Sequence record: MK327932.1 | Direction: 5' to 3' (one strand) | Origin: Escherichia phage vB_EcoM_G2248 | Length of the DNA stretch: 64,000 nucleotides | Shown: in pieces, positions 5,035-63,836 of the stretch | Numbering within the stretch: the stretch's first letter is position 1 | How the letters are laid out: the number at the start of each line of letters is the position of its first letter | Notes under the pieces: generated by a model | The model's input: only the letters and a program-made list of their open reading frames with translations | What the model was told of the DNA's origin: nothing | Databases searched by the model: none | Made by a program: the position numbers and the translations under genes

Positions 5035-5778
5035 TCATTCTCCGTCAGTTCGTTTCAGGTATTCCAATGCCGCATATAATCTTTGAGGATCGTCTTTGAA
5101 CATCCCTAATCCGGCATTACATTTTCCACAAAGAACACCTCTTATCTTACCAGTCTTATGATTATGGTCAAGATGTTTCCACTTTTGGCGTTTTCTCACG
5201 CCGCATCGTTCATTTATGAATTTTACACCGCATATCTCGCAATTGTCAACTCTGCCTAAAATTTCTAACGCTTCTCTTTTTGATATTTTTATACCATTTT
5301 CGGCATGATGATATGGCCTATCTAGTTCTCGCTCTCGCTTCTCAAACAATCGACACTCATCAGAACAATACTTTTGAGATACGTTTATTGCAACAAATGG
5401 TTTACCACATTTAGCGCATTCTCGTTCAATCTTTATGTTTTGTGCCTGGTCCAACGATGCGCAACGAGAACAGCAAAATTTATGATAGCCTTTAGAGTAT
5501 GTATGATAATTTACAGGATTTGGGCATCTTGCACATTTAACTATTCCTGTTATTCCGTGGCGCAATCTATAAACAGCCTCGTTATATGGTTGTTGATTTC
5601 TGAGACCTCCATTACAGAACTTAAACTCATTCCTTATAATCTGAAATTCAGCAGGATACAATTTTTCCATTTCTGGAATTTTATTTTCTTTAAAAAGATT
5701 TGAGTTTAGTCTATTTCCGCTTTTCGCCTCCAGAACATCAACAATAAACTTTTTGATGTTCACTTTTTCTCTCTCCAA
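5035..5778 (-). CDS. HNH endonuclease of the Endo VII type with N-terminal zinc-ribbon repeats (probable homing endonuclease)
   Basis: C-terminal HLDHNHKTGKIRGVLCGKCNAGLG matches the T4 endonuclease VII catalytic signature; several CxxC...CxxC ribbons upstream; locally AT-rich. Confidence 0.65.
   Translation of the reverse strand: MEREKVNIKKFIVDVLEAKSGNRLNSNLFKENKIPEMEKLYPAEFQIIRNEFKFCNGGLRNQQPYNEAVYRLRHGITGIVKCARCPNPVNYHTYSKGYHKFCCSRCASLDQAQNIKIERECAKCGKPFVAINVSQKYCSDECRLFEKRERELDRPYHHAENGIKISKREALEILGRVDNCEICGVKFINERCGVRKRQKWKHLDHNHKTGKIRGVLCGKCNAGLGMFKDDPQRLYAALEYLKRTDGE
5035..5778 (-). mobile_element. free-standing HNH homing-endonuclease-like gene inserted between topoisomerase and dexA
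   Basis: endonuclease signature plus compositional shift; no T4 counterpart at this position. Confidence 0.45.
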
Positions 5779-7133: not shown

Positions 7134-8525
7134 TCAAATATAGTCTACTCGATACCGCGCACGGGTAACACCCACATATAATAACTGCATTGCCAATTCA
7201 AAGTCAACATTGTCTGTACACATACAAGGAGTATACAGGAACACGCGGTCTACGCTGACCCCTTGTGACTTATGAATGGTGCAAGCTGGTAATGCTTTTA
7301 CATTCAAGAACATACGTTTAATCGTCCAGAAGGAATCCCAATCTGGTTTAAATTTTGGATTCTCTTTCTTCATTTCGCGATATTGTCCGGCGACCGTATT
7401 CAGATAGATAAAGAAAATGTTCTTCTGACGTTGTTCTGTCAGAATGTTGATTTCTACCAAATCCGGTTTATCTGTAGTGATTCCGACTGCATCTAAACCG
7501 ACTTTCTGATTTAGGATTTCTTTGTCTTCGTCATCATCGACGCTTTCCACTTTCAGAGTATAGCCTAAAACTGGTTGCGGATCTACCCCCGTGCAACGTA
7601 ATGTAAATTCACGCGGGATGACCTCTTTAACTCGGATCATCTCACCATTGTTAAAAATGACATTGGGAATCTTCTTCCCGCGTTCATCTCGCAGATATTC
7701 GATCAACGGTTCCTGAGTAACCAGAATTTCATCTACAATCACTGGTTCATCTGTGTTATAAACGCGCTTGCGCACAATTTCATTGAGTTTTTCGACGCTC
7801 TTGTTAGTGTAAGCCAGAATACGGTTTTCTAGAAGGTCTTCCGGCGTTTTAACGGTTTCGAAATAATGTTTCATAAACTCCGGCAGAGTTGAGCTATGGA
7901 ATACACCCTCGTTACCGCACTGCTTTTCGAATACCCATTTACCGTTACGGACAGCGGTCGCCACATCAATGATCGGTGCATTAGAACGTTTAATTTCTGT
8001 CAACTCCACGTTTTGAAAATTTTCATCCGTGAAGAAAGGAGAAATTGACGTTGCACCGCTCGGATCAACTGGTCGTAACTGGTGCGGATCGCCAACGGCA
8101 ATAATAACAATTCGACCGTTGATACTCTTCATGAGAATATCAAATAACTTCTTATCGACCATACTCGCTTCATCAACAATGATGATCTGAACATCATCTA
8201 GTTTAGGAGTATCTTTTTGTTCAAATACTTGAGTATCTTCATAGTTGGTCGGGTTTAGTCGCAATAAAGCATGTAAAGTAAATGCTTGACGACCTACCGC
8301 TTTACTCAAAACTTTTTTAGCCTGGTGGGTAGGCGTTGCCAAAACCACACCAGTTACACCACGGCGGACCATTTCCTGAACAATGAATTTCATCATTGCG
8401 GTTTTACCAGTACCCGCCGCACCACGGACAGTTGTATGCTTCTTTTGTTCAATTCGTTTCATTAGAACATCAAAAGCATGTTTTTGTCCGTCTGTCAACA
8501 TATCGAAAGTTAATACTCTGCTCAT
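7134..8525 (-). CDS. dda: Dda-type SF1 DNA helicase
   Basis: 463 aa; Walker A GAAGTGKT, Walker B IIVDEASM, C-terminal LYVGVTRARY; collinear with T4 Dda. Confidence 0.9.
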   Translation of the reverse strand: MSRVLTFDMLTDGQKHAFDVLMKRIEQKKHTTVRGAAGTGKTAMMKFIVQEMVRRGVTGVVLATPTHQAKKVLSKAVGRQAFTLHALLRLNPTNYEDTQVFEQKDTPKLDDVQIIIVDEASMVDKKLFDILMKSINGRIVIIAVGDPHQLRPVDPSGATSISPFFTDENFQNVELTEIKRSNAPIIDVATAVRNGKWVFEKQCGNEGVFHSSTLPEFMKHYFETVKTPEDLLENRILAYTNKSVEKLNEIVRKRVYNTDEPVIVDEILVTQEPLIEYLRDERGKKIPNVIFNNGEMIRVKEVIPREFTLRCTGVDPQPVLGYTLKVESVDDDEDKEILNQKVGLDAVGITTDKPDLVEINILTEQRQKNIFFIYLNTVAGQYREMKKENPKFKPDWDSFWTIKRMFLNVKALPACTIHKSQGVSVDRVFLYTPCMCTDNVDFELAMQLLYVGVTRARYRVDYI

Positions 8526-8839
8526 TATCCTAAAATCCTCACCTTGCGAACACAGATAGTATTGAGTTCCCGCCGTACCCGTTCTTTTTCATATTCAGGA
8601 ATTTTGTATTCTATACCATCCCGAACAATTTCAGAAGATCGGATTATACCAAATTTTCTTTTAGGCACAACCTTGTATTTCGGTTCGCCTGCCAATAGAC
8701 TCTCACAATAATCTATCTGATCACACATTGACGCTAACGCAGCATCATGTGTTTCGCAAGTTAGGACGCGACCTTTCGCGTCCACTGAGTATTGAAAGAA
8801 TCCGTCTTTATCACGATAACATACAGCAAATACATGCAT
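8525..8839 (-). CDS. hypothetical protein (dda.1 position)
   Basis: 104-aa ORF, start overlaps upstream stop. Confidence 0.5.
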   Translation of the reverse strand: MHVFAVCYRDKDGFFQYSVDAKGRVLTCETHDAALASMCDQIDYCESLLAGEPKYKVVPKRKFGIIRSSEIVRDGIEYKIPEYEKERVRRELNTICVRKVRILG

Positions 8840-10228: not shown

Positions 10229-10753
10229 TTAGTAGCCGCGTTCTTGACGGGCGAAGTTTTCAGCATTTTTCAGATAGTACAGAATAAAGAGTTCTTGAGC
10301 GTCAATACCCAGCGGGATCATCTTTGACAGAATGAAGTGGATCGCGTCCACAAATTCAAATTTCACTTCAAGCTGATCTTCTGGTGACAGTTCAGAGAAT
10401 TTACGCGCTCGCGCTTCCCCGTGGTTCTTTTTCCACATTTTCCAGATTGCACTTGCATCTTTACCATTGGACATTCCACCCAGCGATGTGTAAAGCTCTC
10501 GTGTTTCGTCTGCGATAGCGTCATCCATCCGTTGCATCCAATCCAGCATTTCACCGCAAGTCTCTAGCTTAGTTGGATTTGGGACCCAATCAAATTTTTC
10601 GGATAGTGCAACCTGCAAACCAGTTTGCATTTCTAGCATCACCTGAAACGGATCTTTACCTTCTGCAATCGCGTGATGATATGCGGCGATAGCCGCGTTA
10701 ATATCTTTTTCGTTAACCAGACCAGCACAAGAATTAAATTCTGACATATTCAC
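10229..10753 (-). CDS. 56: dCTPase/dUTPase (MazG-like), gp56
   Basis: 174 aa; matches my recollection of T4 gp56, notably the C-terminal LYYLKNAENFARQERGY. Confidence 0.8.
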   Translation of the reverse strand: MNMSEFNSCAGLVNEKDINAAIAAYHHAIAEGKDPFQVMLEMQTGLQVALSEKFDWVPNPTKLETCGEMLDWMQRMDDAIADETRELYTSLGGMSNGKDASAIWKMWKKNHGEARARKFSELSPEDQLEVKFEFVDAIHFILSKMIPLGIDAQELFILYYLKNAENFARQERGY

Positions 10754-10761
10754 CTCATTAA

Positions 10762-11790
10762 TTAAAATTTACAATATTTCATAAACCGCATTTTAGCCAT
10801 CAGACCTTGTACGGTGTTCTCTTTGATATATTCCATGATCTGGTCGCGTGTAGCGCCCTCGTCCTGAATCATGGCGTTAACGTCTTTAGAATGCCACGGG
10901 CAACGGTCCCACAATACAATCTTTTCCCCTGCATTGATAAACTTTTCCAGTCGGTGCATTGTATCGGCAGACCGTGGTTCCGCATCAAGTACAAACACTC
11001 GCTGATCAGGGAAAGGAATTTCATCTAATCCCAAAGTACCGCCAGTAATTGCACACCCGTTATCAATAAACAATGAATCGATCGGACCTTCTAAGAAATA
11101 CACTGGCCTACTCGGATCGGCGCGTTCAAGACCATAGACCTTACTCGCTAACTCATGAGTTTTAATCGTCATATATTTGGTCTTTCCGTAATCCTTTCTC
11201 AATGCTCGCCCCTGAATGGATTCTATCTTGTTCTCGCGGTTAAAGATAGGAATCACTAAACGCGGTTCAGGTTGTGGATTCTTGAAAGTATCAGCCTTAA
11301 TGTGATTTGCTACCTTTTGCCATTCTCTCGTGAAATACAGAAGATCCCATTTATCGTGGGGAATGCAACGATCACTGACATACTTTATTATAGGATGATT
11401 AGCCGGAAGAGTATCTAATCTCTCGCAGAAAGGCAATGTTTGCACTTTCTTAATCTCCGGCTTTTCTACCTTTTTAAGTGGCTTGAACGTGGTGTTCTTG
11501 TGGTCGCCTTGTTCCTTCCGTCGTTCCATAAGCCATTCCCTGAATAGGTCCGGCTTATACTGTTTGAGAAATTCACCTAACGGCTGATTGTAGTTACAGT
11601 TGAAACAACCACAACGCAAACTATCTTTATAGGTATAGATACGGAATCGCGCTTGAGTATGATTTTTCTTTGAGTCACCGCAGATCGGACAACTACAGAC
11701 CAGCGTAAATGAGCTAGTATGCAACCGTTTAAAATTTCGTTCGCCGTATATGGCTTTTTCCGCTATTTCATAATCTGCGTAGTAAATCAT
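10762..11790 (-). CDS. 61: DNA primase gp61
   Basis: 342 aa (T4 gp61 length); N-terminal zinc-binding CxxC...CxxC; position upstream of 41. Confidence 0.9.
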   Translation of the reverse strand: MIYYADYEIAEKAIYGERNFKRLHTSSFTLVCSCPICGDSKKNHTQARFRIYTYKDSLRCGCFNCNYNQPLGEFLKQYKPDLFREWLMERRKEQGDHKNTTFKPLKKVEKPEIKKVQTLPFCERLDTLPANHPIIKYVSDRCIPHDKWDLLYFTREWQKVANHIKADTFKNPQPEPRLVIPIFNRENKIESIQGRALRKDYGKTKYMTIKTHELASKVYGLERADPSRPVYFLEGPIDSLFIDNGCAITGGTLGLDEIPFPDQRVFVLDAEPRSADTMHRLEKFINAGEKIVLWDRCPWHSKDVNAMIQDEGATRDQIMEYIKENTVQGLMAKMRFMKYCKF

Positions 11791-11799
11791 AATAACCTC

Positions 11800-12003
11800 T
11801 TATAGCTCAAATTTCATGAAAGTTCCTACACTTTCATTTTCATTCTCTCCGTTTTCATCTAAGCCAAATTTGTAGACACTACCATCTGGCGATGTGTAAG
11901 AGAATACACGAAAACGGCCTACCGAATCAAGTTCTGTAAATTCATATTCTTTTCCGGCTTCAAAAAGTGCATATGTGCTTTTAAGACATTTCATCGTAAT
12001 CAT
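11800..12003 (-). CDS. hypothetical protein
   Basis: 67-aa ORF, start overlaps upstream stop (ATGA). Confidence 0.45.
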   Translation of the reverse strand: MITMKCLKSTYALFEAGKEYEFTELDSVGRFRVFSYTSPDGSVYKFGLDENGENENESVGTFMKFEL

Positions 12004-13417: not shown

Positions 13418-14830
13418 TTAGAAAGTCATGTTATTTGCTAGCTCGTCGAGTTTTTCTCGTTTCTCGGCTTGCTGTGCGCTTTGTGGTTTAACTTGTGCAT
13501 TCTCCTGATCTGCGATCTGGTTTGGAACTTCATACCAACGCTGATTTCCTTTTTTCACACCAACGTTAAACCGTGAATAGTAGTTCTTATCGCCGTAACG
13601 AGACTTGATCTGCTTCATGAGTTGGACGCCCATTTTAGCCAGGTCTTCGGTTTCGATAACACCCAACATAAAATCTGCTGTAGCCGGAAGACCTGCTGAT
13701 TCAGCGGTATCACTCATGTTAAGGTCTGACGCATCCCAACCCGCGCGGGTAGTCTGTGCCGCAGTCCAACCAACAACATCCCACTTAACAAAAAATCCTC
13801 GCAGTTCTTCCGCAATCGCCTTAACTAGTGTGTAACTATTTTCAGAGTATACACGCAAGCGAGACGATGCGCAAATCCCCAGATAGTCAACAATCACAAC
13901 ATCAGGTTTAAACTGTTTCTTGAGTCGCAATTCATTCATTAACGCCTCAAAGTGATTGGAGTTCGCGCCACCAGTCGGATACTGCTTGATCATCAATTTT
14001 CCAACCGGACGATCTCCGATCTTCTTATTCTTAACACGCTTCATACGTGCGGAATATTCCGCAAAAGAAACATTACCATTATCCAATTCATCTAATGTAA
14101 TGTCAAGCAAGTTTGCGTCAATACGTTTGGCTACGACATGCTCTGCCATCTCCATTGAGATATACAATACATCATAACCACATTCCATATAATCCGCAGC
14201 AAGAGAACACAATCCAAGCGATTTACCAACATTTACACCAGCAAGCAACACATTTAGCGTTTTTCTTTCCGCCCCTCCTTTCGTGATTTTATTCAACATC
14301 GGCAGCTTAAACGGGATCTTATTCGCCTTAGTCTGATATAGCAAGAATCGTTTTTCAAAGTCATTAAACCAGTCATGACCTACATCAGAATCAAACGTAA
14401 TTGATAGTGCTTCCTGCATAATCTCAGGAATAGCTCCCTCGCCAGGCAATTTCTTATTCTGTTTCTCTTTTGGTAGTTGTGCGTTCGCCTGAATCTCTAG
14501 CGCCCGTGACATTGCATTATACATGGCACGGTCACGAATAAATTTTTCGGTTTCCTTCATCAACCAATCAAGGTCTTCCGGTGTATTCTCAAGCGAATCA
14601 AGAAGAGTTTTAGCCCCTTCATATGTTGTCTGATTGCCTCTCTCCTTGTCTAAAGCAATCTGTAATGCAGTTGGCGTAGGAATATTGGAATATTCGTCTA
14701 CGTGCTTTTTAATCAGCTTATAAATCAGTTTTTCTTCGTCTTCGGTGAAGTAGTCCGCTTTAAGGTGAGGCCATACATTCGTAAAGAATGCGCCATTGTA
14801 AATCAACTGTGAAAAGATAGTTTTAATCAT
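13418..14830 (-). CDS. 41: replicative DnaB-like helicase gp41
   Basis: 470 aa; Walker A GVNVGKS; collinear with T4 gp41 over full length. Confidence 0.9.
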   Translation of the reverse strand: MIKTIFSQLIYNGAFFTNVWPHLKADYFTEDEEKLIYKLIKKHVDEYSNIPTPTALQIALDKERGNQTTYEGAKTLLDSLENTPEDLDWLMKETEKFIRDRAMYNAMSRALEIQANAQLPKEKQNKKLPGEGAIPEIMQEALSITFDSDVGHDWFNDFEKRFLLYQTKANKIPFKLPMLNKITKGGAERKTLNVLLAGVNVGKSLGLCSLAADYMECGYDVLYISMEMAEHVVAKRIDANLLDITLDELDNGNVSFAEYSARMKRVKNKKIGDRPVGKLMIKQYPTGGANSNHFEALMNELRLKKQFKPDVVIVDYLGICASSRLRVYSENSYTLVKAIAEELRGFFVKWDVVGWTAAQTTRAGWDASDLNMSDTAESAGLPATADFMLGVIETEDLAKMGVQLMKQIKSRYGDKNYYSRFNVGVKKGNQRWYEVPNQIADQENAQVKPQSAQQAEKREKLDELANNMTF

Positions 14831-14832
14831 AC

Positions 14833-15144
14833 TTAGCCCCCAACTACACGCATAACAAAGGTCTTGAGTTTATACCAGAAAGTTTCTTTTTTCAACTTTT
14901 CTTCTGCTTCTTTGATTTGCGCGGTTAACGCCTTAATGACGTGTGGATATACCACATCACGATCTGACGGCGTGGAGTAGTCGACCACAATACCTTTAGT
15001 GTCTGGATCGTATTCAACATTATGAATATAGACAATATGATGCTCTCCCTCTTCATCAACAATTATCAATTCCTGAATAACTGTCTTCATTGCTTCTTGA
15101 ATCAAGCCGTGTGCTTCTTCTAAACTTGTTGGTTTCTTATCCAT
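14833..15144 (-). CDS. hypothetical protein
   Basis: 103-aa ORF between 41 and uvsX. Confidence 0.5.
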   Translation of the reverse strand: MDKKPTSLEEAHGLIQEAMKTVIQELIIVDEEGEHHIVYIHNVEYDPDTKGIVVDYSTPSDRDVVYPHVIKALTAQIKEAEEKLKKETFWYKLKTFVMRVVGG

Positions 15145-15166
15145 AATATAATCCTCTCTAGATATG

Positions 15167-15186
15167 AAAAAGGGGCACGTAGCCCC
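15167..15186 (-). terminator. rho-independent terminator after uvsX
   Basis: hairpin GGGGC-ACGUA-GCCCC followed by U-run in minus sense. Confidence 0.5.
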
Positions 15187-15199
15187 TTTACTACCATTG

Positions 15200-16270
15200 T
15201 TATGCTAACATATCTTCGATTTCTTTGTCAACTGCTTCGTCGCTGATCACTTGCCCCAGCTTATAATGATCGTTGATTGCTTCGTTAAACTTATCGTTTG
15301 TCAGAAGTGGTTTCCAGAACTCAATGCTATTGGTTTCTTTAGCACGGAACTTGCGTTCTTCGGTTTCCATCTCTCCGGTCTCGGTATTCAGGATTGAACG
15401 AGAATACCAGCCGTTTGACGGTTTCACTACCCAGCCTAACTCTACAGCCAATTCCAGCAAGCCAGAATAAGGATCGATACCACCGCTAAATGTTACGCTA
15501 ATCGGGAACTTAGATTTTTCTTTAACGGTTCGTGATTTTTCCGCATTCAGGATAAAATCATAACCAGTAATTTCGGTTCCTTCTTTCTGCTGACGACGAC
15601 CAATAATGAAAACTTCATTGGCTGAATACATCGCGCCCGTACCGCCGGACATAACGGTCTTACTAAACATTTCTTGCGTTTCGTAAGTGTGGTTAATAGC
15701 GATGCACGGGATATCATTCATAGTCAGATACGGCGTCACCATACGGAACAAGCCTTTAAGTGCTTTAGCTCGCGTCATATCCTGTGCGGATTTCTCATTA
15801 ATCGCGTCTTCAACTTCTTTTTTACTTGCTAAGTTACCGATTGAGTCAATAAAGATGATCACTTTATCTTCACGGGTAATTTGCTCAAGCTGGTTCATGA
15901 TTTCAAATTTAAGTTCTTCGATGTTCTTGATTGGAACATGCACCACGCGATCAGGATCTACACCCATAGATTCAAGATAAGCGGATGTAATACCGAACTC
16001 AGAATCAAAGAACAAACACGCCGCATCAGGATTCTGTTTCATGTATGCACTAACACAAGTTAATCCCATGTTTGATTTAAAGTGCTTAGACGGACCAGCA
16101 AAGAAAATCAGACCAGATTGAAAGCCTTTTTTAACATCACCCGAAAACGCAATATTCAGCATCGGGATCTTAGTGCGAGTATTTGTTTTTTCGTTAAAGA
16201 AGCTGGATTTAGACAGTACCGCAGTAGTTTTCAGTGTAGAGTTCTTTTTCAGTTTTTCCAGTACAGACAT
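15200..16270 (-). CDS. uvsX: RecA-like recombinase UvsX
   Basis: 356 aa; Walker A GPSKHFKS; RecA-fold motifs. Confidence 0.9.
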   Translation of the reverse strand: MSVLEKLKKNSTLKTTAVLSKSSFFNEKTNTRTKIPMLNIAFSGDVKKGFQSGLIFFAGPSKHFKSNMGLTCVSAYMKQNPDAACLFFDSEFGITSAYLESMGVDPDRVVHVPIKNIEELKFEIMNQLEQITREDKVIIFIDSIGNLASKKEVEDAINEKSAQDMTRAKALKGLFRMVTPYLTMNDIPCIAINHTYETQEMFSKTVMSGGTGAMYSANEVFIIGRRQQKEGTEITGYDFILNAEKSRTVKEKSKFPISVTFSGGIDPYSGLLELAVELGWVVKPSNGWYSRSILNTETGEMETEERKFRAKETNSIEFWKPLLTNDKFNEAINDHYKLGQVISDEAVDKEIEDMLA

Positions 16271-16281
16271 TATTAATACCT

Positions 16282-16509
16282 CTATTCAGTTAATCCGTAA
16301 TACTTTAATTGCTTCATTGTTATTCGATCTTTGTAGTGCTCTTGAATTAACTTTTTCATCGCATCAACATCGATCGTCACAAATACTTCGTTGCTGTGAT
16401 TTCCGTGAACTTTCTTGAAATGCTCTATGCCTTCCTCACGTTCACGTTTAATCTTTTCAATGTCTCTCATAGTATATTTCTCACGTTGGCGGGTATCGTC
16501 ACACAACAC
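16282..16509 (-). CDS. hypothetical protein
   Basis: 75-aa ORF; the only ORF between uvsX and 43. Confidence 0.4.
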   Translation of the reverse strand: MLCDDTRQREKYTMRDIEKIKREREEGIEHFKKVHGNHSNEVFVTIDVDAMKKLIQEHYKDRITMKQLKYYGLTE

Positions 16510-16531
16510 CCGCCATTATACACACTTTATC

Positions 16532-19240
16532 TTAAATGTCAAACAGGTCAGTAAGCGATGCAACTTTTTCGTATTGCAGCTTTGCAGCCGTGGTAATGTT
16601 CTCCAGCGGTTTGACGAAAGTCTTATTAAACAACAAAGGCCAGTCTAACCACTTCAACACTTCTGATTCAATTTCTGGCGGAATACGAGTACCAGACAAC
16701 CAACCAAAACAGATTTCTCCAAACGGATTTCGATCTTTAAGCGGTACAATCATAACCTTCTCGCCTTCACGAATCGGATCTAGTCCGAATTTTCTGGCAT
16801 TACGATTATAACACAATACACTCTTAACCGCATACGGACAACCCTTAATCGGATACCCGTTTGAATCGCTGTATTTCTGTAGGTTGTTTGCCGATGATAC
16901 CGCAGCAACCTCAAGATAGTCAAGTTTTCGAAACTCTTGCTCAAAAATACCGTAGTATTCCTGCAATGACTCTTCCCCTTCCTGCAACATACGGCGAATA
17001 CATTCTTTCAGTGATTTCTGACATGCTTTAGGGGTGGAGCTACGTTGCGTTTCCAAGCCCATGATTTTTAGCTTAGGTTCAGCAAAGCGCGTTCCTTCCA
17101 TATCCCAAACATTAAGAGCATAACGCTTTTTGCCAGTCCAGAATCCACCGATACCCGCAGATTTCAACGGAGGACCAGCAATTGCCTCGCGGTCCATAAA
17201 CATCAAGTGCTCGTAGTTGTTCATGTACTCGCATAACTCGCGATATCCCTTGTCGATAATAGGTTCCATTCGATGTTTACCGAAATTATCAAGGAAGTCA
17301 ACAAGTTTTTCGGTATCGTCGAAACGGTCTTCCCCGCCAACCTTATCAATAACATTGTTAACCAGCACATAAACGGAGTCAGTATCACAATAACGAACAT
17401 ATGCAAAATCGGTTGTTCCGCAAAGATCGTTTAAGTATTCGTTAATCTTACGCTCAATCCACTGAATTGCAAGCTGACCGAACAGTGTGATCGCACTAGC
17501 GTTACGGAGATCATAAAAACGGAATTTAGGATTCCCCAACGCACCATAAAGGGAGTTGATCAAAACTTTTCGAGAAAGCTGGTTTGTATTGCACAAGATC
17601 GACTCGCCTTTACATTCTTCCAGCAATTTCTCTAAGGCATCTTTACTTAATTCAGAAAGCATCGATTTAAACGCTTCATCGAAGTCGTGACGCACTTCAA
17701 CGCTATAGCTAATGGTTCCCCCATAAACATGATTTTCATCGTGTAGAATCGCTTTACAGAGTTCAGCATTGCGATCACATGCCAACATCATGTTTTTGTA
17801 CTGCTTACGCTGATCGAATACCTTTTTAATCTCAATCGGTACGATACCATGAATATCTTTTCTATACATCCATCCGTTAGGCGAGCAAGAATACTCATCA
17901 CTCGGACGTGGTGCAGTTTTATTGATATACTCGTGCATCGGTGCAGCATCAAAAGATCCAGCGATTGTTTCAGGCGAAATGTTAACCTGTCGAATAATAG
18001 ATGGGTACAGACTTGTTAAGTCAAAGCTCATCATCCAACGGTAAGCATTCGGCACAGGTTCTTTTACGAATGCGCCTGGATACGTCTGCTTAGGCTGTAT
18101 CTTGTTCTCTGGTACTACTTTACCCTCAGCTTTCAGAGATCCGAAGATAATAGCATCCCATACTTTCATTGGGTTATAAACATGGTTAAATTTAATCTTT
18201 GCATAGAAACATAGGCTATACACCAGATCAATAAAACCACGCTTTTTATCAATCGCCAGCACACGGTCAACGTCGCCGATGTTATAATCTATGTAAAGTT
18301 GATGGTTGTCATCACGCAATTTCTTTAACGGACCATCATAATCAACCTTACCGATTCCGGTCTCATATTCAGCAACATAATCTAACGCATATGTTGGTTG
18401 AGTCGTAAAGCTAAATTTCTTGTACAGGTCAATATAATCAAGGCTTTCGATCCCCATGATCGTAAATGCTTCACGCTCGTTGCCAAAATCATCCTGTGAG
18501 ATTCGGGATTTAATCTTACCGCACGGGCTTAGACGGTTAGCGGTTCTACTTCCGAACTTATTACTGATACGTTTAATGATATACGGTATATCGAATGTTT
18601 CTGTGTTCCAGCCAGTGAAACCAACGGGTCGGTTTTCCTCAAAGAATCGGACGTATTCTAACAGCAATTCATCTTCTGTGTCATAGACGTTATAAACAAC
18701 GCGCTCTACAATATCAGGTCGAAGAATAGACTTGCTTGCTTCCCAGATTTCATCGTTTTTTCCTTTCAAATCAAATACAAAGAAACGATCATGTACGGAA
18801 TCATAATGCGTAATTGCATCGATAGGATATTTCGCTTCTTCTGGTTTAGGAAATTCTGGGGCAGTGACCTCGATATCAACCCATGCTACACGGATTTTAT
18901 TTCGGTCATATCGAATCTCTCCTTTATACGTATCGGACAGATAGGAGATGATAAAATCATCCATCCCTAGTGCCTCTTGCCCCATCTCCCCCATCTTTTT
19001 ACGCCATTTGTTGGCCTCGTTCATAGAGGGGAATTTTTTAGCAATGCAAGGCTTGCCATAGATATCTTTATAATTCGTCACCATACCAGGCGCGGCATGA
19101 TGAAATAAAGTTGGCGTATATTCAACGTAACGCTCTTGTTCTTGTCCAGCATCATCAATATAACGCTCGTAGATCTTATCACCCACTCGCTCACATGACA
19201 GAAAATACATAATATAAACTCCTTCACTTACGAAAGACAC
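16532..19240 (-). CDS. 43: family B DNA polymerase gp43
   Basis: 902 aa; exonuclease and polymerase motifs (DxE, YGDTDS-like CDTDSVYV, KxxxNSxYG) collinear with T4 gp43. Confidence 0.95.
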   Translation of the reverse strand: MSFVSEGVYIMYFLSCERVGDKIYERYIDDAGQEQERYVEYTPTLFHHAAPGMVTNYKDIYGKPCIAKKFPSMNEANKWRKKMGEMGQEALGMDDFIISYLSDTYKGEIRYDRNKIRVAWVDIEVTAPEFPKPEEAKYPIDAITHYDSVHDRFFVFDLKGKNDEIWEASKSILRPDIVERVVYNVYDTEDELLLEYVRFFEENRPVGFTGWNTETFDIPYIIKRISNKFGSRTANRLSPCGKIKSRISQDDFGNEREAFTIMGIESLDYIDLYKKFSFTTQPTYALDYVAEYETGIGKVDYDGPLKKLRDDNHQLYIDYNIGDVDRVLAIDKKRGFIDLVYSLCFYAKIKFNHVYNPMKVWDAIIFGSLKAEGKVVPENKIQPKQTYPGAFVKEPVPNAYRWMMSFDLTSLYPSIIRQVNISPETIAGSFDAAPMHEYINKTAPRPSDEYSCSPNGWMYRKDIHGIVPIEIKKVFDQRKQYKNMMLACDRNAELCKAILHDENHVYGGTISYSVEVRHDFDEAFKSMLSELSKDALEKLLEECKGESILCNTNQLSRKVLINSLYGALGNPKFRFYDLRNASAITLFGQLAIQWIERKINEYLNDLCGTTDFAYVRYCDTDSVYVLVNNVIDKVGGEDRFDDTEKLVDFLDNFGKHRMEPIIDKGYRELCEYMNNYEHLMFMDREAIAGPPLKSAGIGGFWTGKKRYALNVWDMEGTRFAEPKLKIMGLETQRSSTPKACQKSLKECIRRMLQEGEESLQEYYGIFEQEFRKLDYLEVAAVSSANNLQKYSDSNGYPIKGCPYAVKSVLCYNRNARKFGLDPIREGEKVMIVPLKDRNPFGEICFGWLSGTRIPPEIESEVLKWLDWPLLFNKTFVKPLENITTAAKLQYEKVASLTDLFDI

Positions 19241-19292
19241 TCATTATAGGGGAATCGACTTAGTTTGTCAATACCCCTATCTCATCAGTATC

Positions 19293-19655
19293 TTAGCGTC
19301 CGATCTGATATTTCTCGATCAGCGTCCACTCTTCTTTCTGTTTGAAAGACAGTACACGGAAATTATTAACTTCGGTAGTTTCAAAATCACTATCAATCAG
19401 GGTACACAGATTCCACTGCGCCAGAAGTTTTGCAATGTTATTACGGCGTAATTCATCTTCCCACGTCATTTTAACACTACGACCATCTAATTTCAACAAC
19501 TCCTTGAAATGAACGATGTAATAGCGCCCTTTCTTCTGGAGAATATGACAAGACTGATACAGTGTCTTGTCACGATTGTTGGCAATGCCGCAGCGGGTTA
19601 AAGTCTCCTTAATTTTAAGGAAGTTTTCAGGACTAATCAAATTAATTTCAATCAT
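19293..19655 (-). CDS. regA: translational repressor RegA
   Basis: 120 aa; near-identical blocks to T4 RegA (VLYQSCHILQKKG, NNFRV). Confidence 0.9.
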   Translation of the reverse strand: MIEINLISPENFLKIKETLTRCGIANNRDKTLYQSCHILQKKGRYYIVHFKELLKLDGRSVKMTWEDELRRNNIAKLLAQWNLCTLIDSDFETTEVNNFRVLSFKQKEEWTLIEKYQIGR

Positions 19656-19656
19656 T

Positions 19657-20235
19657 TTACCACCTTTCTATAATCTTTTTAAGTCGTTTCCTTTCTGTCT
19701 GATTCTTAGTAACACCCGCCAAAAGTTCATCGGTCGCATACGGTTTAATGTGCTTCAATAACTTGTCCATATATCCCTTTTCATTAGCCAAATCGAGATA
19801 AAACCGGGCGTCATCCATATTTACACAATATGCTTTCGCCACTGCCATTAAAACCAATTTTTGGTCCAATTCTTCTGTTAGTTTAGCCCATTTACCGTAT
19901 CGTTTCCCCTTAGAAATACTCTGTAAGAGATAATCAAAATGCATTTGATCTGGGAGGCCATGACCGATTAAATTCATCACATACGCGCTATATAGACAAT
20001 CTGCGTGCTGGGAAAGAGCGGTGTTAATCCATCTCTGGTTATATGCAGAATTGTTTCCCACATTAACGCGCTGTTTATCTAAGGTGATATGATCCATCAG
20101 AGCAAATAATGCATTGTCGGTTTTCTCGGTGAATGTGTCCGCTAGTTCAGACACTTTTTCCCAATCACGAGAGCGCCATGCAATTTCATGCTCGTTTAAT
20201 TGTGTATCATCTTCACCGAAAAATTGACCTAACAT
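19657..20235 (-). CDS. 62: clamp loader small subunit gp62
   Basis: 192 aa; position and KGKRYGKWAKL block. Confidence 0.85.
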   Translation of the reverse strand: MLGQFFGEDDTQLNEHEIAWRSRDWEKVSELADTFTEKTDNALFALMDHITLDKQRVNVGNNSAYNQRWINTALSQHADCLYSAYVMNLIGHGLPDQMHFDYLLQSISKGKRYGKWAKLTEELDQKLVLMAVAKAYCVNMDDARFYLDLANEKGYMDKLLKHIKPYATDELLAGVTKNQTERKRLKKIIERW

Positions 20236-26088: not shown

Positions 26089-27114
26089 CTAACTTTTTGC
26101 GCTATTTACTTCGGCTAAAAGTTCATCAGAAATACGCTTGACCGCCGCAAGTTCTTCCGGTTCTAGGTTTTGTTCTTCCAGATATTCATAGACCATCTGA
26201 ATAGTGCTTTTAACTTCAATAACACCTGTTTCCTGTGATGCGCTACTCTCCAGTTTATGGACCACTTTTAGCTTGTGTACAACGGCCTCTAACGCGCTTT
26301 CTAACTTAGTTAACCCATTATCAGCAACCGTTGCGATAAGACGCACACTAAGCCCCTTAAAGCGTTCTACATCGATTTTATCATCTGACGGGTAAGTGAT
26401 ACGCACATGATAAGTTTTGTCATTCTGGATAAACTCTTTTTTGTGTGTATCGGTATCGAATACCCAAAACCCACGCGGATCGTTTTCGTCACCCGCCGTT
26501 AGTGTGTATGGTGTACCAATATACGTTACGTTACCGCCATCACTGATAGTATGAAAGTGACCCGAAAACACTTCACGGTATTTCTTGAGGAAGTCCGCGC
26601 TATAACCTTCGGATTTTAGCCCTTTATAGAAATAGTAACCGGACAATTCCCAATGGCCTACACAATATTCGCTGAATGAGTTTTGAATAAACTCTAAAAT
26701 CTCTGATTTATTGTCATCACAAAACCACGGGAACAGATCAAATGATACACCATCAAAGGTAACTGTTTCCGGTTTATCGATAACCTTAATGCAATCATAC
26801 TGGCTTAACACTTCACGCGGTGCGTTAGGCTGGATCTTGTTTCGTTTAAACATATCATGATTCCCGACCGTGGTATAACAAGTAATATCAGCCTCTTCCA
26901 GTAGCGGTATGACCTTAGTACGGTTAAATTTCATGGTTTCATGGGTAATTGCTTTTCGGCAATCAAACCAATCCCCTGTTTGAATCCATGTCTTAATATT
27001 ATGCTCTTTGGAGTATTCAACCGCTTTCTTGATGGTGTCAAGAATATACTCATGCACCCACGGATCATCGCCACCGATACCAGTATGCAGATCACCTAAA
27101 AGCAAAATTTTCAT
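26089..27114 (-). CDS. 47: recombination endonuclease subunit gp47 (Mre11/SbcD-like phosphoesterase)
   Basis: 341 aa; calcineurin-like motifs (MKILLLGDLH, GNHD). Confidence 0.9.
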   Translation of the reverse strand: MKILLLGDLHTGIGGDDPWVHEYILDTIKKAVEYSKEHNIKTWIQTGDWFDCRKAITHETMKFNRTKVIPLLEEADITCYTTVGNHDMFKRNKIQPNAPREVLSQYDCIKVIDKPETVTFDGVSFDLFPWFCDDNKSEILEFIQNSFSEYCVGHWELSGYYFYKGLKSEGYSADFLKKYREVFSGHFHTISDGGNVTYIGTPYTLTAGDENDPRGFWVFDTDTHKKEFIQNDKTYHVRITYPSDDKIDVERFKGLSVRLIATVADNGLTKLESALEAVVHKLKVVHKLESSASQETGVIEVKSTIQMVYEYLEEQNLEPEELAAVKRISDELLAEVNSAKS

Positions 27115-27205
27115 AGTCTCTTCCTCTCTTCGTTTTCGATGCTCTCACTATATCACAGAAAAATAAAAAGGGAAACCCCTTTCAGAGTCTCCCTTATAAA
27201 AGCCA

Positions 27206-27493
27206 TTACAGCATACTTAATACCGTTTGCCGTGTACTAATCCACATAGCAGAAAGCAGTTCTGGCGTGTGTGGCTGTTTGTAGATATCACGTAACTTTC
27301 CGATAGCGTAGATATACGCATCACGGTTATCATCGATGATAGCTTGTTCAGCCCACCGCTTAAGGCGTGCAATCTCTCGCGAGTTCTTACGCAAGATCTT
27401 TTCCGCTTTCTTAGCGGCTTTAGCCTCTAGTTCTGCTTGTACTTTGTCTACTTCATTCACTGCAATCTGGTCATGCTGTTCATTGCAAGTCAT
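27206..27493 (-). CDS. hypothetical protein
   Basis: 95-aa ORF between 47 and 55. Confidence 0.45.
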   Translation of the reverse strand: MTCNEQHDQIAVNEVDKVQAELEAKAAKKAEKILRKNSREIARLKRWAEQAIIDDNRDAYIYAIGKLRDIYKQPHTPELLSAMWISTRQTVLSML

Positions 27494-27494
27494 A

Positions 27495-27728
27495 TTATTT
27501 TACCTCTGGGATATAATCAATTATTAAAGAAAATTCATCTTCTGATACATTATAGCTATGTGAGATTGTACCCGTAAAGACCTCAAGATCCGGTGATTTG
27601 ATATTGCACGGATCGATAATCACCGGAACGCCGCAATCTCTCAAAAATAATTTGGCGAAATACGGCACAAGGTCAGTTTCAAACTCTGCTTCTTCCAGCA
27701 AACGGGAAATGTTAATTTTCAATCTCAT
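27495..27728 (-). CDS. hypothetical protein
   Basis: 77-aa ORF between 47 and 55. Confidence 0.4.
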
Positions 27729-28245
27729 AAAATTGGTCCAGGCTAGGCAATTCCTCGGTCAATACATCTTCAACCTTTGGCGCTTTCGGTTTATTGACCG
27801 ATTCCTCGTAGTTGTTGATTTTATCGTAAATGTCCTGTATGAATGCCTCATCAGCAATCTGGCACATATCAGCGTCGCGTTCGTCATATACATGATGCAC
27901 AAAATATTTGTATTTTGCGGCTGTCGCTGTTCTCTCTTTTTTAATGCGCTGTACAAAAGCATTAAAGCACGCTTGCGTGATGTAAGCATGAGGATTTTTA
28001 TACTTTGTCTCGTCAAAATTAATCAAACCCTTGACCGCCGCTTCGATTCCGTCGTCGATCATTTCTTCGCGCCATGTTTGACTATAACCAGAAAAGTTAA
28101 AACGACGTGATAGATTTTTAGAGATTTGCATAATTGCTAGGCCGATTTGATCGCTCATTGGAACTTGCCGACCTTCTGCTGCAATTTGTTGTTTCCAACG
28201 GCAAATTTCTTCGTAAAGCTCTTTATTGTTTACATAATCAGACAC
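27712..28245 (-). CDS. 55: late-transcription sigma factor gp55
   Basis: 177 aa; long identical blocks to T4 gp55 ([33 protein letters not shown]). Confidence 0.9.
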
Positions 28246-39335: not shown

Positions 39336-39809
39336 CTATCTTAATCTTTGTATGAATTGTTTCTTATACTTCTTCGTGATCTCTTCTCTTGTATCCGCGT
39401 CACAGTAATCGAAACCTTCTGCGTCCATAATAGCAACCATCTCCGCTCGTGTCAAGCGTGAAAATCGTTTTACTTTATCAACAGCATATTGAGGATGTAA
39501 ATGATTGTTGGTGTAGTCTCCTTTGATGTAATTAACATAGTTTGTAGCCCAAACAACGAAATCAGCACCTAAAGCACCAACACCAAACCGTTTAAAGTCT
39601 CCGGTCAACGATCCTTCTAGGCGGTTGCAACACGAATGAAGCAATCCCCTTACGCGGCCTTGCCCTTTCCCATCTAGATCGTGGTCGTGGTCAAGATGGT
39701 TTTTGCTCATATCCTCAAAAAGTGGCAATTGACAAAGGGGGCAAATGCCCCCCTGTTTTTCGAATAGTTCTTGTTTGTACTCTTTAGCACTCTTAGCAGT
39801 CAGTAACAT
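39336..39809 (-). CDS. 49: recombination endonuclease VII (gp49)
   Basis: starts at ATG giving MLLTAKS... as in T4 gp49; HLDHDH...RGLLHSCCN catalytic/zinc motif. Confidence 0.85.
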   Translation of the reverse strand: MLLTAKSAKEYKQELFEKQGGICPLCQLPLFEDMSKNHLDHDHDLDGKGQGRVRGLLHSCCNRLEGSLTGDFKRFGVGALGADFVVWATNYVNYIKGDYTNNHLHPQYAVDKVKRFSRLTRAEMVAIMDAEGFDYCDADTREEITKKYKKQFIQRLR

Positions 39810-39833
39810 AAATTCACCCTCCAAAGAAGGTAT

Positions 39834-40115
39834 TTAACCATTAATCTTGTTTTTGACTACAAAGGATCGGAACTCATCAAAACCACCGATATAATCACCA
39901 TCATAGAAAATCTGCGGCATGGTGGCAATAACTTCTACCCCTGCGCGATCCTGAATATCGGCAATGATAGAATCAATCTTTACCGGACGACCGTTTTCGT
40001 CCACACCATCATTAACCGGAATGTAGATGTAAGGGATCTTACGCGCTTCACAAAGGCGCTTTGCATTCTGGCAATACTTACAGTTGTAACCTTCAAAACC
40101 AAAAATTTCTACCAT
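39834..40115 (-). CDS. nrdC: glutaredoxin/thioredoxin NrdC
   Basis: CKYCQNAKRL redox motif comparable to T4 NrdC CVYCDNAKRL. Confidence 0.75.
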   Translation of the reverse strand: MVEIFGFEGYNCKYCQNAKRLCEARKIPYIYIPVNDGVDENGRPVKIDSIIADIQDRAGVEVIATMPQIFYDGDYIGGFDEFRSFVVKNKING

Positions 40116-40123
40116 GTTATACC

Positions 40124-40936
40124 TCAATCTACGTTAGTTACATAAACTTCTTGCGTATCAGAAGACTTACCACCTGAACGATCTAGGCAATAGGTCTTAT
40201 TCAACAGGACGCAGTTTAAATCATTCCGCTTGATAAAGTCAAGGAGATGATCATTTACCTTTCCCTTATGATGCGTGACATTACTGATACCAAACTGAAA
40301 ACCACGCGCCATAATCGATTCTACCCACTGATAGAATTTAATCTCTTCCTCGTCACTCCAGAACTTATTATATTCCGCAGAAGTGATAAGGTACGGCGGG
40401 TCCAAATAAACGAAATCACCTGGCAAGATCTCGATCTCGTCATAGCGACCAGACGTAAAACTGATTCGACCGTCTTTGTTTTCTTCCTTAAAATTCAGGA
40501 CACGCTCTACCGCGTTTTCGTTAAAAGTCCGGCGACCAAAATTAGCATTAAATTCTCCCTTCCTGTTATGGCGGTTAATGTTGCTAAAACTGTGCTGAAT
40601 CAGAACAAACAGAGATAGCGGATCTGGATTCTCATTATACTTCTTGCGGAATGCCATATAAGAATCTTTATCATCACGAGACAAACCATTCTCGGCAATA
40701 ATCAGCTTGATCGTAGAAACCGGATCAGGACACTCGTCAATCGCTTTGTACGCGTCAATTAAGCGGTGATCATAGTCATTAGCCAGAACACCCCCTTCGA
40801 CGTACAGAGACACGCTCAAGCCACCACAAAAGGCATCAACAAAGCGGTTATAGTGCTTAGGGAAATACTTACTAACACTTGGCAATAACTTTTCCTTATT
40901 GCCAGTATAGGGAATTAAACCTAATGCTTTCTTCAT
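40124..40936 (-). CDS. dam: DNA adenine methyltransferase (Dam)
   Basis: 270 aa; SAM-binding FCGGLS and catalytic DPPY motifs. Confidence 0.85.
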   Translation of the reverse strand: MKKALGLIPYTGNKEKLLPSVSKYFPKHYNRFVDAFCGGLSVSLYVEGGVLANDYDHRLIDAYKAIDECPDPVSTIKLIIAENGLSRDDKDSYMAFRKKYNENPDPLSLFVLIQHSFSNINRHNRKGEFNANFGRRTFNENAVERVLNFKEENKDGRISFTSGRYDEIEILPGDFVYLDPPYLITSAEYNKFWSDEEEIKFYQWVESIMARGFQFGISNVTHHKGKVNDHLLDFIKRNDLNCVLLNKTYCLDRSGGKSSDTQEVYVTNVD

Positions 40937-41367
40937 TATCCCTTCCTCAAATAAGTTCGCTCAATCTCTACCAGTTCGAAAAATTCATCCCAATCACACG
41001 GAAAATTGCAGTTTCCAAAATGGTCTTCATTGTAAAGCTCTTTACCGGATGGCAACTTAATATCTGTTACAGTATACCAACCGCAACAATCACAATCACC
41101 CTCAACAACAGAAACTTTCGTCGGAATTTGCATCATTGCCAGATAGGTCGGCACGTCAGACTGTTCAAAGATCATGTAACCTTCATTGTCAAACGAAACA
41201 AAATTATCATCGCCCAAAAAAGGGATATAGTGGTCATAATCGGTTACAGGTTGACCGTGCAATTCCCATTCTACAATTTTAACATTACCACTAAACTTGA
41301 TACCCATCATATCAACCATAAAATGAGTATCGTCAATGTAAATCTTACTAGGAGTTGGATAAACCAT
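40936..41367 (-). CDS. hypothetical Cys-rich protein
   Basis: 143-aa ORF; CDCCGW...CNFPCDW. Confidence 0.45.
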   Translation of the reverse strand: MVYPTPSKIYIDDTHFMVDMMGIKFSGNVKIVEWELHGQPVTDYDHYIPFLGDDNFVSFDNEGYMIFEQSDVPTYLAMMQIPTKVSVVEGDCDCCGWYTVTDIKLPSGKELYNEDHFGNCNFPCDWDEFFELVEIERTYLRKG

Positions 41368-45904: not shown

Positions 45905-46251
45905 GCCAGACCTCGCAAAACACTAATAGCATAATCATGCTGGTTATTCATAATATCAATTGCATTGTGATAACGAGCTAAACCATCAAGGATAAATTCT
46001 TGTTTATCCTGTTTCAGTTTTGTATCACGCGCAGCCATAAGAGCATCAAGAACAGGTCCAAAGTGATTATCTAATTCATCTTCGGTTGCAATGTTTCCTA
46101 TTGCCTCGTCGATCCGTGATTCTAATGCTTGCTTTTCGTTGATCACTTGCTGGGTATATTCCAACACATCAAGAATATCGCGGGTAACGTCGCCATGATA
46201 AGGTATTCCCGCATGAAAATGATCAATTAATCGCTGAATATCAATGTTCAT
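45901..46251 (-). CDS. hypothetical protein
   Basis: 116-aa ORF. Confidence 0.45.
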   Translation of the reverse strand: MNIDIQRLIDHFHAGIPYHGDVTRDILDVLEYTQQVINEKQALESRIDEAIGNIATEDELDNHFGPVLDALMAARDTKLKQDKQEFILDGLARYHNAIDIMNNQHDYAISVLRGLA

Positions 46252-46586: not shown

Positions 46587-46785
46587 TCTTCACGGTCTCC
46601 ATAATTGTTTTGTAAGCCAGCTTAAAATGATCACCGAAAAACTTTGCGGTGTTACCATTCGGATCGCGGAGCATGGTTTCTACGATCTCATCGGCAGTAA
46701 CAATTTCTCCTTTCTTTGCTGCATGTTCTACCATATACTTCAAAGTTTCTTCGGAGGCAAGTGCTGCGGCTACTGGATTAATCAT
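46576..46785 (-). CDS. hypothetical protein
   Basis: 69-aa ORF; promoter at 46815-46843. Confidence 0.45.
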   Translation of the reverse strand: MINPVAAALASEETLKYMVEHAAKKGEIVTADEIVETMLRDPNGNTAKFFGDHFKLAYKTIMETVKNAK

Positions 46786-49815: not shown

Positions 49816-50412
49816 TTAGTTGGTAGTGCCGTCAATAAAATGTTTACGGCACACAGAAACATATTTATCCTCTGCACCAACTTCTATTTGAGCACCATCG
49901 CGAACAACATTACCCTCTTTATCTACACGAAGGACCATAGTTGCTTTCTTACCGCAATGACAAATACCCTTCATTTCGACCAGTTTATCAGCAAATGCCA
50001 TCAATGCCGCAGATCCTTCAAATAGATTGCCCTGAAAGTCGGTGCGAAGCCCATAACACAAAACAGGGATATTGGCATCATCAACCAGTGCACACAAGCC
50101 TAAAACATGCTCTTTAGTCATAAATTGGGCTTCATCTACAAACACAGCAGCAGGACGCCAGCGATCTGGTCTACGCTTACCTAGTGATTCACGATAAACC
50201 AAATCGAAAAGATCATCTGATTTAGTGAATGTGATCGCTGGAGCACTTAGACCAATTCGGGAAACAACTTCACTCTCTGAATCTCGATTATCAATCGCTG
50301 GCTTAAGAATCAATACTCGCATATCACGTTCGGTATAGTTATAAGCACTTTGTAACAGAGAAGTTGATTTGCCAGCGTTCATAGATGCATAGTAGAAATA
50401 TAATTGCGCCAT
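49816..50412 (-). CDS. tk: thymidine kinase
   Basis: 198 aa; P-loop SMNAGKST and C-terminal zinc ribbon CHCG...CRKH. Confidence 0.9.
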   Translation of the reverse strand: MAQLYFYYASMNAGKSTSLLQSAYNYTERDMRVLILKPAIDNRDSESEVVSRIGLSAPAITFTKSDDLFDLVYRESLGKRRPDRWRPAAVFVDEAQFMTKEHVLGLCALVDDANIPVLCYGLRTDFQGNLFEGSAALMAFADKLVEMKGICHCGKKATMVLRVDKEGNVVRDGAQIEVGAEDKYVSVCRKHFIDGTTN

Positions 50413-63179: not shown

Positions 63180-63836
63180 TTAAATGTTCGCGAGAATCGC
63201 GCTTTCAAATTCTTCTAATGTACCATTATTTATGATAATGGTTTCACCGTCAATAGGCAAAATTCCTTTTTCGGTGGAGTGAGTCGATACAATACCAGTA
63301 TCACGCTGAATATGCAACACCTTAGCACCCATAGCACGCATGAGAGCAATTTCAATAGGCTGACGCACATCAACCACTACAAAATACCCTTCTTCATTTT
63401 TGCGCTTCATAAACTCATTCACGAAGAGATTACACCAATAAAGCGGATTGATCAAGTTAACCATTATATCAGTACCGAGAGTGGTTAACATGAGACGAAT
63501 AGACCAGACGTTATTATGTTTTTCGCCGATCTCATTAACGACCTTGTAAATCTCAGCCAGACGATCACAAGTAAAGGAACTACCGCCATACTTCGAATCT
63601 AGCATAAGCAGACACTGAATAAACCACTTATGCGCGGTATAGGTATCAATACCTAGATCGGCTTCTCTGTCACGCCCTAACCCGTCAAAGTCAAGATAAG
63701 TCAGACCTAAGTCTGGTTGACATTCGCATAAGATTTCTTTGATCGGTGCTGCCAGTTGATAACTGTGTCCATCAATGATTAACGCGGCAGTATCTTTTCC
63801 TACTCGCTTTTTACCACAAAGTGCAATCAATTTCAT
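63180..63836 (-). CDS. 1: deoxynucleoside monophosphate kinase gp1
   Basis: 218 aa; P-loop CGKKRVGKDT, QLAAPIK, LMLTTLGTD, ALMRAMGA blocks as in T4 gp1. Confidence 0.9.
   Translation of the reverse strand: MKLIALCGKKRVGKDTAALIIDGHSYQLAAPIKEILCECQPDLGLTYLDFDGLGRDREADLGIDTYTAHKWFIQCLLMLDSKYGGSSFTCDRLAEIYKVVNEIGEKHNNVWSIRLMLTTLGTDIMVNLINPLYWCNLFVNEFMKRKNEEGYFVVVDVRQPIEIALMRAMGAKVLHIQRDTGIVSTHSTEKGILPIDGETIIINNGTLEEFESAILANI

Follow-up and report, generated by a model that had tools for sequence, protein, structure and literature searches.

The stretch of DNA considered here, 64,000 nucleotides of Escherichia phage vB_EcoM_G2248 (sequence record MK327932.1; the whole stretch is called the window), very probably comes from a Krischvirus that replicates with ordinary cytosine. 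The two slots in which T4 keeps its genes for hydroxymethylating and glucosylating cytosine would then simply be empty, and gene 56, whose product gp56 belongs to the T4 dCTPase-dUTPase family, would be kept for the pyrimidine deoxynucleotide pathway. This reading rests on gene content, on the lack of known modification genes in the genomes searched, on an intact and conserved active-site motif in gp56, and on the avoidance of restriction sites.

Megablast with positions 14000-20000 of the window as the query matched 64 phage records. Fifty-eight of these are at least 95% identical over at least 80% of the query, and all 58 are Krischvirus ('pseudo-T-even') coliphages. With the query covered over 100% of its length, vB_EcoM_G37-3 (G37-3 below) is 99.6% identical and RB49, Phi1, JSE and GEC-3S are about 98.3% identical. 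High nucleotide identity (98.3% over 6 kb) and synteny with RB49, by which membership of Krischvirus is judged, are both found here. The window begins at rIIA, the conventional genome start in Krischvirus records, and to judge from its sequence it covers the opening 64 kb of an RB49-like Krischvirus genome about 165 kb long. It has 40% G+C along its whole length and a negative GC skew throughout, the majority of its long open reading frames (ORFs) lie on the minus strand, and 2.7 kb of the 64 kb are without a match in relatives. The G+C content agrees with that of the RB49-like phages, and no tRNA genes are reported for Krischvirus (PMC7552041). Gene coordinates in the window were obtained by mapping across the annotations of Phi1 (T4-style) and G37-3 (Table 1), and two complete relatives, G37-3 (167,832 bp) and SAP (165,332 bp; OZ034687), were assembled for whole-genome searches.

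The gap between uvsX and gene 43 measures 261 bp in the window versus about 3.6 kb in T4, where it holds segA, beta-gt, 42, imm and imm.1. A first-pass annotation, made from the letters of the window, had described this interval as holding one 75-aa ORF and none of beta-gt, 42 or imm. The single ORF and the missing genes stand, but the length probably does not: the product of this ORF (ORF025 in Phi1) is likely to be 62 aa, from an ATG at 16470, rather than 75 aa from the GTG, if its sequence is a guide. The counterparts in Phi1 and G37-3 are annotated at 189 nt, and ORF025 matches a PHROG of unknown function (phrog_12120, 7.4e-42) over residues 14-75; a Pfam scan of ORF025 gave no match. Its sequence is strongly charged and without a hydrophobic segment, and it is therefore not an Imm-like membrane protein. 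The coordinates given in the same annotation begin at 14833, which is gene 40 and not uvsX.

The interval between genes 47 and 55 had been described as two small ORFs with no alpha-gt, and this is borne out; both ORFs can now be named as homologues of T4 a-gt.4 and a-gt.5, the PF17595 match of the latter falling under the family cut-off. In T4 the 47-55 interval contains 47.1, alpha-gt, mobB and a-gt.2 to a-gt.5. Since a-gt.4 and a-gt.5 flank alpha-gt in T4, the alpha-gt slot had been rightly identified.

Both arrangements are shared by the relatives: RB49, Phi1, JSE, GEC-3S and G37-3 have the same order 41-40-uvsX-ORF025-43 and 47-a-gt.4-a-gt.5-55. Compared with T4, the backbone genes that flank both slots are syntenic, and the window or the genus has homologues of gp56 (49% identity), gp1, Dam (47%), Cd, Td, Frd, the Nrd enzymes and DenA, whereas gp42, alpha-gt, beta-gt, imm, imm.1 and segA are missing. 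Furthermore, alc and denB, whose T4 products act against cytosine DNA, are absent from the Krischvirus or RB49 type, as is ndd (PMC12115623, PMC2993671). RB43, a Pseudotevenvirus, resembles the window: gene 56 is kept, gene 42 and the glucosyltransferases are missing, uvsX directly adjoins 43, and the order 55-a-gt.5-a-gt.4-47 is found. It differs in that genes 32, 59, 33, dsbA and rnh come after rpbA, in that its gp56 is only 51% identical, and in having ndd (PMC12115623). Because RB43 has the same compact junctions, the empty slots represent a backbone state common to cytosine-containing T4 relatives. The beta-gt/42/imm and alpha-gt cassettes would then not be part of the genome of this lineage, the junctions being in their compact backbone state.

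A search of the window by tblastn with T4 gp42, beta-gt, alpha-gt, imm, imm.1 and 47.1 found no homologue (best E = 0.79). Against the window, whole G37-3 and whole SAP, alpha-gt and beta-gt gave nothing better than E = 0.5, imm had no homologue, and gp42 matched td alone (E about 0.005, 21-23% identity). No glycosyltransferase, hydroxymethylase or dioxygenase was detected when 30 ORFs of the window and another 10 of G37-3 were scanned with Pfam. Thus neither of the proteins that define the T4-type hydroxymethylcytosine system, a ThyA-family hydroxymethylase with Asp for Asn and a DNA glucosyltransferase, was found. The first-pass annotation had proposed a search beyond the window, and its extension to G37-3 and SAP yielded no gene 42 and no glucosyltransferase.

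The td gene lies outside the window, and Krischvirus Td is a full Thymidylat_synt protein (E 1.2e-84). By comparison with an E. coli ThyA reference sequence, it retains the catalytic Cys and the dUMP-specifying Asn ('LGLPFNVASY'), where T4 gp42 has Asp. Krischvirus Td is longer than E. coli ThyA, at 406-410 aa, owing to some 130 residues inserted internally. I considered the 406-aa Td as a disguised hydroxymethylase and rejected it, the dUMP-type Asn and catalytic Cys being kept and the length being due to the internal insertion. A second S-adenosylmethionine-dependent methyltransferase is encoded in G37-3 inside the baseplate gene cluster (26613-27452 of the genome piece, outside the window). 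An NPPF motif, together with weak matches to Eco57I and N6_Mtase, marks this enzyme of the genus as an amino-methyltransferase; the same features reject it as a C5-cytosine methylase feeding a TET-type route. The segments specific to the window were likewise rejected as modification enzymes, one being an ORF with an Endonuclease_7 domain and the other a protein of tandem immunoglobulin (Ig)-like repeats.

The hexamer content of the DNA points in the same direction. Expectations were taken from a maximal-order Markov model, and only testable 6-bp palindromes were counted. Of 53 palindromic hexamers the window lacks 14 altogether, as against 10 of 3461 non-palindromic ones. The missing palindromes are GAATTC (0 observed, 15.4 expected), TCCGGA (0 and 24.2), AAGCTT (0 and 14.6), GGATCC (0 and 11.8), AGCGCT, ACCGGT, AGGCCT, AGTACT, CACGTG, CAGCTG, CCATGG, CCGCGG, GCATGC and GGTACC. 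The complete relatives behave alike: 17 of 60 palindromes are missing from whole G37-3 (GAATTC 0 versus 46.9 expected, TCCGGA 0 versus 69.8) and 20 of 60 from whole SAP. Unlike these, the first 50 kb of T4 lack none of 38 (median observed/expected 0.98), and RB43, in 26 kb, lacks 6 of 34, which is partial avoidance. Depletion in Krischvirus genomes, but not in T4, extends to GGCC, AGCT and CCWGG. Viruses whose DNA meets type II enzymes are known to evade restriction by avoiding the sites (PMC6286503). A strong purge of palindromes here, with none in the hypermodified T4, fits a lineage whose DNA has been open to restriction over a long history of replication.

The first-pass annotation had also recognized Dam, rightly: the window protein matches PF02086, is 46.8% identical to T4 Dam (tblastn, E 2.5e-63) and belongs to the D12 class. 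Its gene adjoins nrdC and gene 49 in the window, whereas in T4 it lies between 56 and 61; the place beside nrdC is shared with the RB49-like relatives. Protection from restriction would be afforded, at least in part, by purged palindromes together with Dam methylation, and not by cytosine hypermodification. The observed/expected ratio of GATC is 1.04-1.05 in Krischvirus sequences versus 0.36 in positions 1-50000 of T4, and both encode Dam.

The gene retained in all of this is 56. The earlier claim of a clear gp56 dCTPase homologue holds, as the window protein is 49% identical to T4 gp56 over its full length (tblastn, E 2.5e-50). It scores 24.8 bits against PF08761 (dimeric dUTPase; cut-off 22.9) and 5e-37 against phrog_173. 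It is 99.4% identical to Phi1 gp56, up to 56% to those of T2 type, 57% to the G37-3 allele and 51% to RB43. Homologues occur in 1399 phage records across the Straboviridae. Within Krischvirus, 38 records carry a gene 56 at least 99% identical to the window allele and about twenty carry alleles 60-80% identical to it, all of them intact. Twenty-seven positions are invariant across 49 aligned sequences (28 in a 47-row set), with alleles only 57-69% identical to each other. Among the residues invariant in 49 homologues including T4 are D80, E81, R83, E84, E127, E131 and D134, of which the acidic ones would be metal ligands by analogy with MazG and dimeric dUTPases. The AlphaFold model of gp56 predicts an all-helical protein with high confidence (predicted local distance difference test, pLDDT, 94), consistent with the all-alpha MazG-like fold. 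No member of the gp56 family is known to have a solved structure, and the substrate-binding residues are therefore not assignable. A sequence search of gp56 against solved structures gave no match and Foldseek E-values were not significant, so that gp56 stands apart at the sequence level from the solved members of the superfamily of MazG, HisE, dimeric dUTPase and DCTPP1/RS21-C6.

At least three divergent alleles of gene 56 circulate within Krischvirus (that of the window, RB49 and Phi1; one about 69% identical; and that of G37-3, at 57%). In G37-3, SAP and RB43, gene 56 has homing-endonuclease genes as immediate neighbours, as it has segF in T4, and the HNH gene that adjoins it in G37-3 is missing from the window. 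On sequence grounds, this suggests that gene 56 alleles have been replaced repeatedly in Krischvirus, driven by endonucleases.

What gp56 most likely does is supply dTMP and remove dUTP. It would convert dUTP and dUDP to dUMP, excluding uracil from DNA and feeding thymidylate synthase, and so far as it is active on dCTP and dCDP it would yield dCMP, which the phage dCMP deaminase would then turn into dUMP. Acting together with Cd, Td, Frd, gp1, Tk and the Nrd enzymes, it would raise dTTP for a 60% A+T genome. The partners are at hand: cd, td, frd, nrdA, nrdB, nrdD, nrdG, tk and gene 1 are annotated in G37-3, SAP and RB49. Of the pathway genes, gene 1, tk, nrdD, nrdG and nrdH lie in the window, and cd, td, frd, nrdA and nrdB outside it. 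Neither the removal of dUTP nor the supply of dUMP depends on hydroxymethylcytosine, and both would benefit a 60% A+T phage in a 50% G+C host. A survey of T4 relatives lists gene 56 in its Table 4 as one that 'provides dUMP for dTMP synthesis', records it in RB49-type phages without gene 42, and finds it a near-universal auxiliary gene that is present in RB49, phi1, JSE and RB43 (PMC2993671). The first-pass annotation had treated the retention of gp56 without modification as a puzzle. This was overstated, given a role independent of hydroxymethylcytosine.

Several points nevertheless weigh against the main reading. The genome searches covered the 64-kb window and close relatives, and the remaining roughly 100 kb are judged from those relatives. 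No residue signature that separates cytosine from hydroxymethylcytosine phages was found in the gp56 alignment, and a Krischvirus gp56 that is 49-56% identical to T-even dCTPases might, on that similarity, destroy dCTP efficiently, which would sit badly with a phage's need of dCTP. A homologue of DenA (endonuclease II) is also retained (PMC8056088), with a GIY-YIG domain, and the DenA of T4 attacks cytosine DNA. Finally, one study reports that liquid chromatography-mass spectrometry (LC-MS) of SAP detected 5-hydroxymethyldeoxycytidine and alpha-gentiobiosyl-methyl-deoxycytidine and that SAP is sensitive to BrxU, a type IV enzyme, no candidate genes being identified to account for it (PMC13390438).

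How do the other explanations fare against these facts? The first-pass annotation had offered a choice between unmodified cytosine and a modification module outside the window. A conventional module (a gene 42-type hydroxymethylase with glucosyltransferases, or another known system) is imaginable in that only 64 kb of roughly 165 kb are visible and the genome is a mosaic with accessory genes such as the 714-aa ORF. However, no homologue of gp42, alpha-gt or beta-gt occurs in the complete genomes of G37-3 (99.6% identical over the 6 kb compared) or SAP, and the sole ThyA-family protein is a thymidylate synthase of the dUMP type. The strong avoidance of restriction sites speaks against long-term hypermodification, and published surveys of the genus concur (PMC2993671, PMC8056088, PMC12115623, PMC13390438). 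A module elsewhere in the genome is thus very improbable and largely refuted, unsupported for any known kind of module, and it is the first option, unmodified cytosine, that gains support from the two complete relatives, the purged palindromes and the literature on RB49 and TB34. Equally improbable is the idea that gene 56 no longer has a function and is a relic left over from an ancestor able to make hydroxymethylcytosine. The best-known role of gene 56 in T4 is indeed tied to hydroxymethylcytosine, and homing endonucleases and allele replacement are frequent around the gene. However, the ORF is intact in all Krischvirus records found, the 27 invariant positions including the acidic motifs persist despite divergent alleles, the predicted fold is confident, and the gene is retained across the Straboviridae with or without gene 42 (PMC2993671). 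An intact and constrained gp56 is therefore not a relic.

The report on SAP gives rise to a further possibility, that some Krischviruses, possibly this one, replace cytosine with hydroxymethylated or glycosylated cytosine by means of enzymes not homologous to those of T4, gp56 supplying dCMP and excluding dCTP. The many conserved ORFs of unknown function in the window and the evident constraint on gp56 would be compatible with such a pathway, as would the SAP measurements, which their authors call unexplained (PMC13390438). Against it, TB34 is 99.96% identical to SAP and unmodified, with no explanatory difference found by the authors, and seven Tequatrovirus phages processed alongside SAP gave the same profile (PMC13390438). 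SAP also has no gp42, alpha-gt or beta-gt homologue and has purged its palindromes like the others, and RB49 is cut by cytosine-modification-sensitive enzymes (PMC4041780). Moreover, RB43 keeps gene 56 without gene 42, and gene 56 is therefore no marker of a hidden pathway. Given this identity of profiles, the modified cytosines of SAP are more likely to stem from carry-over or a sample mix-up than from a new pathway, which I consider only slightly less remote than a conventional module. If true, cytosine modification in SAP would need an entirely unknown pathway, and the finding would matter far more.

Replication with ordinary cytosine also has a variant, in which Krischvirus gp56 has narrowed to dUTP and dUDP and lost the hydrolysis of dCTP. 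This would remove the conflict with the need for dCTP, and no other phage dUTPase gene was found: a search for a trimeric dUTPase, with an E. coli Dut sequence as the query, returned none. Residue 74 of gp56 (codon about 10526-10528) might be read in its favour, being Gln in 37 of the 40 other homologues, T4 included, and Met, Trp, Cys or Asn in all Krischvirus alleles. However, I rejected this change as a marker of cytosine use, because RB43, a cytosine phage also without gene 42, keeps Gln74; the change is therefore specific to the lineage and unlinked to cytosine usage. The retained dCMP deaminase, furthermore, needs a source of dCMP. A gp56 confined to dUTP and dUDP is accordingly a tentative idea, and somewhat unlikely.

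A few further features of the window deserve mention. A TATAAT box (gtgtgTATAATg) lies within 16510-16531, directly downstream of the gene 43 stop and upstream of ORF025, and may be a candidate promoter for ORF025-uvsX, as far as sequence can tell. In the order of the window, gene 43 is followed by regA. Only two segments of the window lack a counterpart in RB49, Phi1, G37-3 or SAP, and each of them is an ORF. The one with the Endonuclease_7 domain, for which megablast finds no match in G37-3, SAP or Phi1, is probably a free-standing homing endonuclease, judging by its domain. The 714-aa ORF has no Pfam family and sits in the early-gene region; among Krischvirus-like phages a few (Brandy, SSG23, JK32) have it too, with nucleotide identities of about 80-83%. 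Its C-terminus matches a 'Hoc-like head decoration' PHROG, and UniProt A0A482GFY1 is 100% identical to it. A homing-endonuclease ORF with HNH_3 and AP2 domains (55781-56356, minus strand) lies upstream of the endolysin gene and is found in SAP, but not at this position in G37-3.

Table 1. Features discussed in the text. Positions are those of the window unless another genome is named, in which case they are coordinates within genome pieces.
Feature	Position	Strand	Basis or remark
Window-only ORF, 247 aa, Endonuclease_7 domain	5035-5778	-	between topoisomerase gene (60+39) and dexA
Gene 56 homologue, 172 aa, all-alpha nucleoside triphosphate pyrophosphohydrolase, T4 dCTPase-dUTPase family	10229..10747	-	
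Gene 41 (gp41)	13418-14830		Phi1/G37-3 annotation
Gene 40 homologue, head vertex assembly chaperone	14833..15144	-	PF11113 5.6e-25; T4 gp40 tblastn E 1.6e-7; gene 40 in Phi1
uvsX recombinase	15200..16270	-	annotation in records 98-99.6% identical to the window
Small ORF (Phi1 ORF025), sole ORF of the uvsX-43 interval	16282..16509	-	75 aa from GTG
Gene 43 DNA polymerase	16532..19210	-	annotation of G37-3, Phi1, RB49; ORF extends to GTG at 19240
Gene 47 recombination endonuclease subunit	26089..27114	-	Phi1, G37-3 annotation
a-gt.4 homologue (DUF2654)	27206..27493	-	PF10849 1.3e-22; T4 a-gt.4 tblastn E 4e-12
a-gt.5 homologue (DUF5491)	27495..27728	-	T4 a-gt.5 tblastn E 2e-7; phrog_1169 2.8e-29
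Gene 55 late sigma factor	27712..28245	-	Phi1, G37-3, RB49 annotation
Dam-type N6-adenine DNA methyltransferase	40124..40936	-	PF02086 1.7e-29 (103.8 bits); annotated dam in RB49
ORF absent from RB49, Phi1, G37-3 and SAP, 714 aa	46893-49037	-	predicted chain of Ig-like beta-sandwich domains and a small C-terminal domain
Thymidine kinase tk	49816..50412	-	RB49, G37-3 annotation at syntenic position
Gene 1 deoxynucleoside monophosphate kinase	63180..63836	-	PF21448 DNMK 3.5e-68; gene 1 in RB49
Gene 56 neighbourhood	G37-3 10275-11646; SAP 46156-47248; RB43 7574-8601		
td	G37-3 39789-41009; SAP 10691-11923		outside the window

The combination of missing modification genes and a retained gene 56 in Krischvirus is already known, for every element of it has been published (PMC2993671, PMC4041780, PMC8056088, PMC12115623). 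Gene 42, alc and denB are confined to the T-even, JS98, RB69, CC31, Acinetobacter-phage and 44RR groups, and gene 56 is found in all sequenced T4 relatives save the giant Aeromonas and Vibrio phages (Petrov et al. 2010, PMC2993671). RB49 has served as the unmodified T4-like control, without hydroxymethylase and beta-glucosyltransferase, and HpaII and NheI both digest its DNA (Yaung et al. 2014, PMC4041780). The RB43 and RB49 groups are described as being without base-modification enzymes while keeping DenA and dCTPase-dUTPase homologues (2021, PMC8056088). Krischvirus is entered in Table 4 of a later study as having dCTPase and denA but not hydroxymethylcytosine, denB, ndd or alc (2025, PMC12115623), and LC-MS of DNA from the Krischvirus TB34 detected canonical nucleosides only (2026, PMC13390438).

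The finding is thus a re-discovery of the textbook difference between T-even and pseudo-T-even phages, and its consequences are recognized: Krischvirus DNA is cuttable and clonable, and it is hit by ordinary restriction-modification and spared by type IV enzymes. Generalised transduction is recognized for these phages as well.

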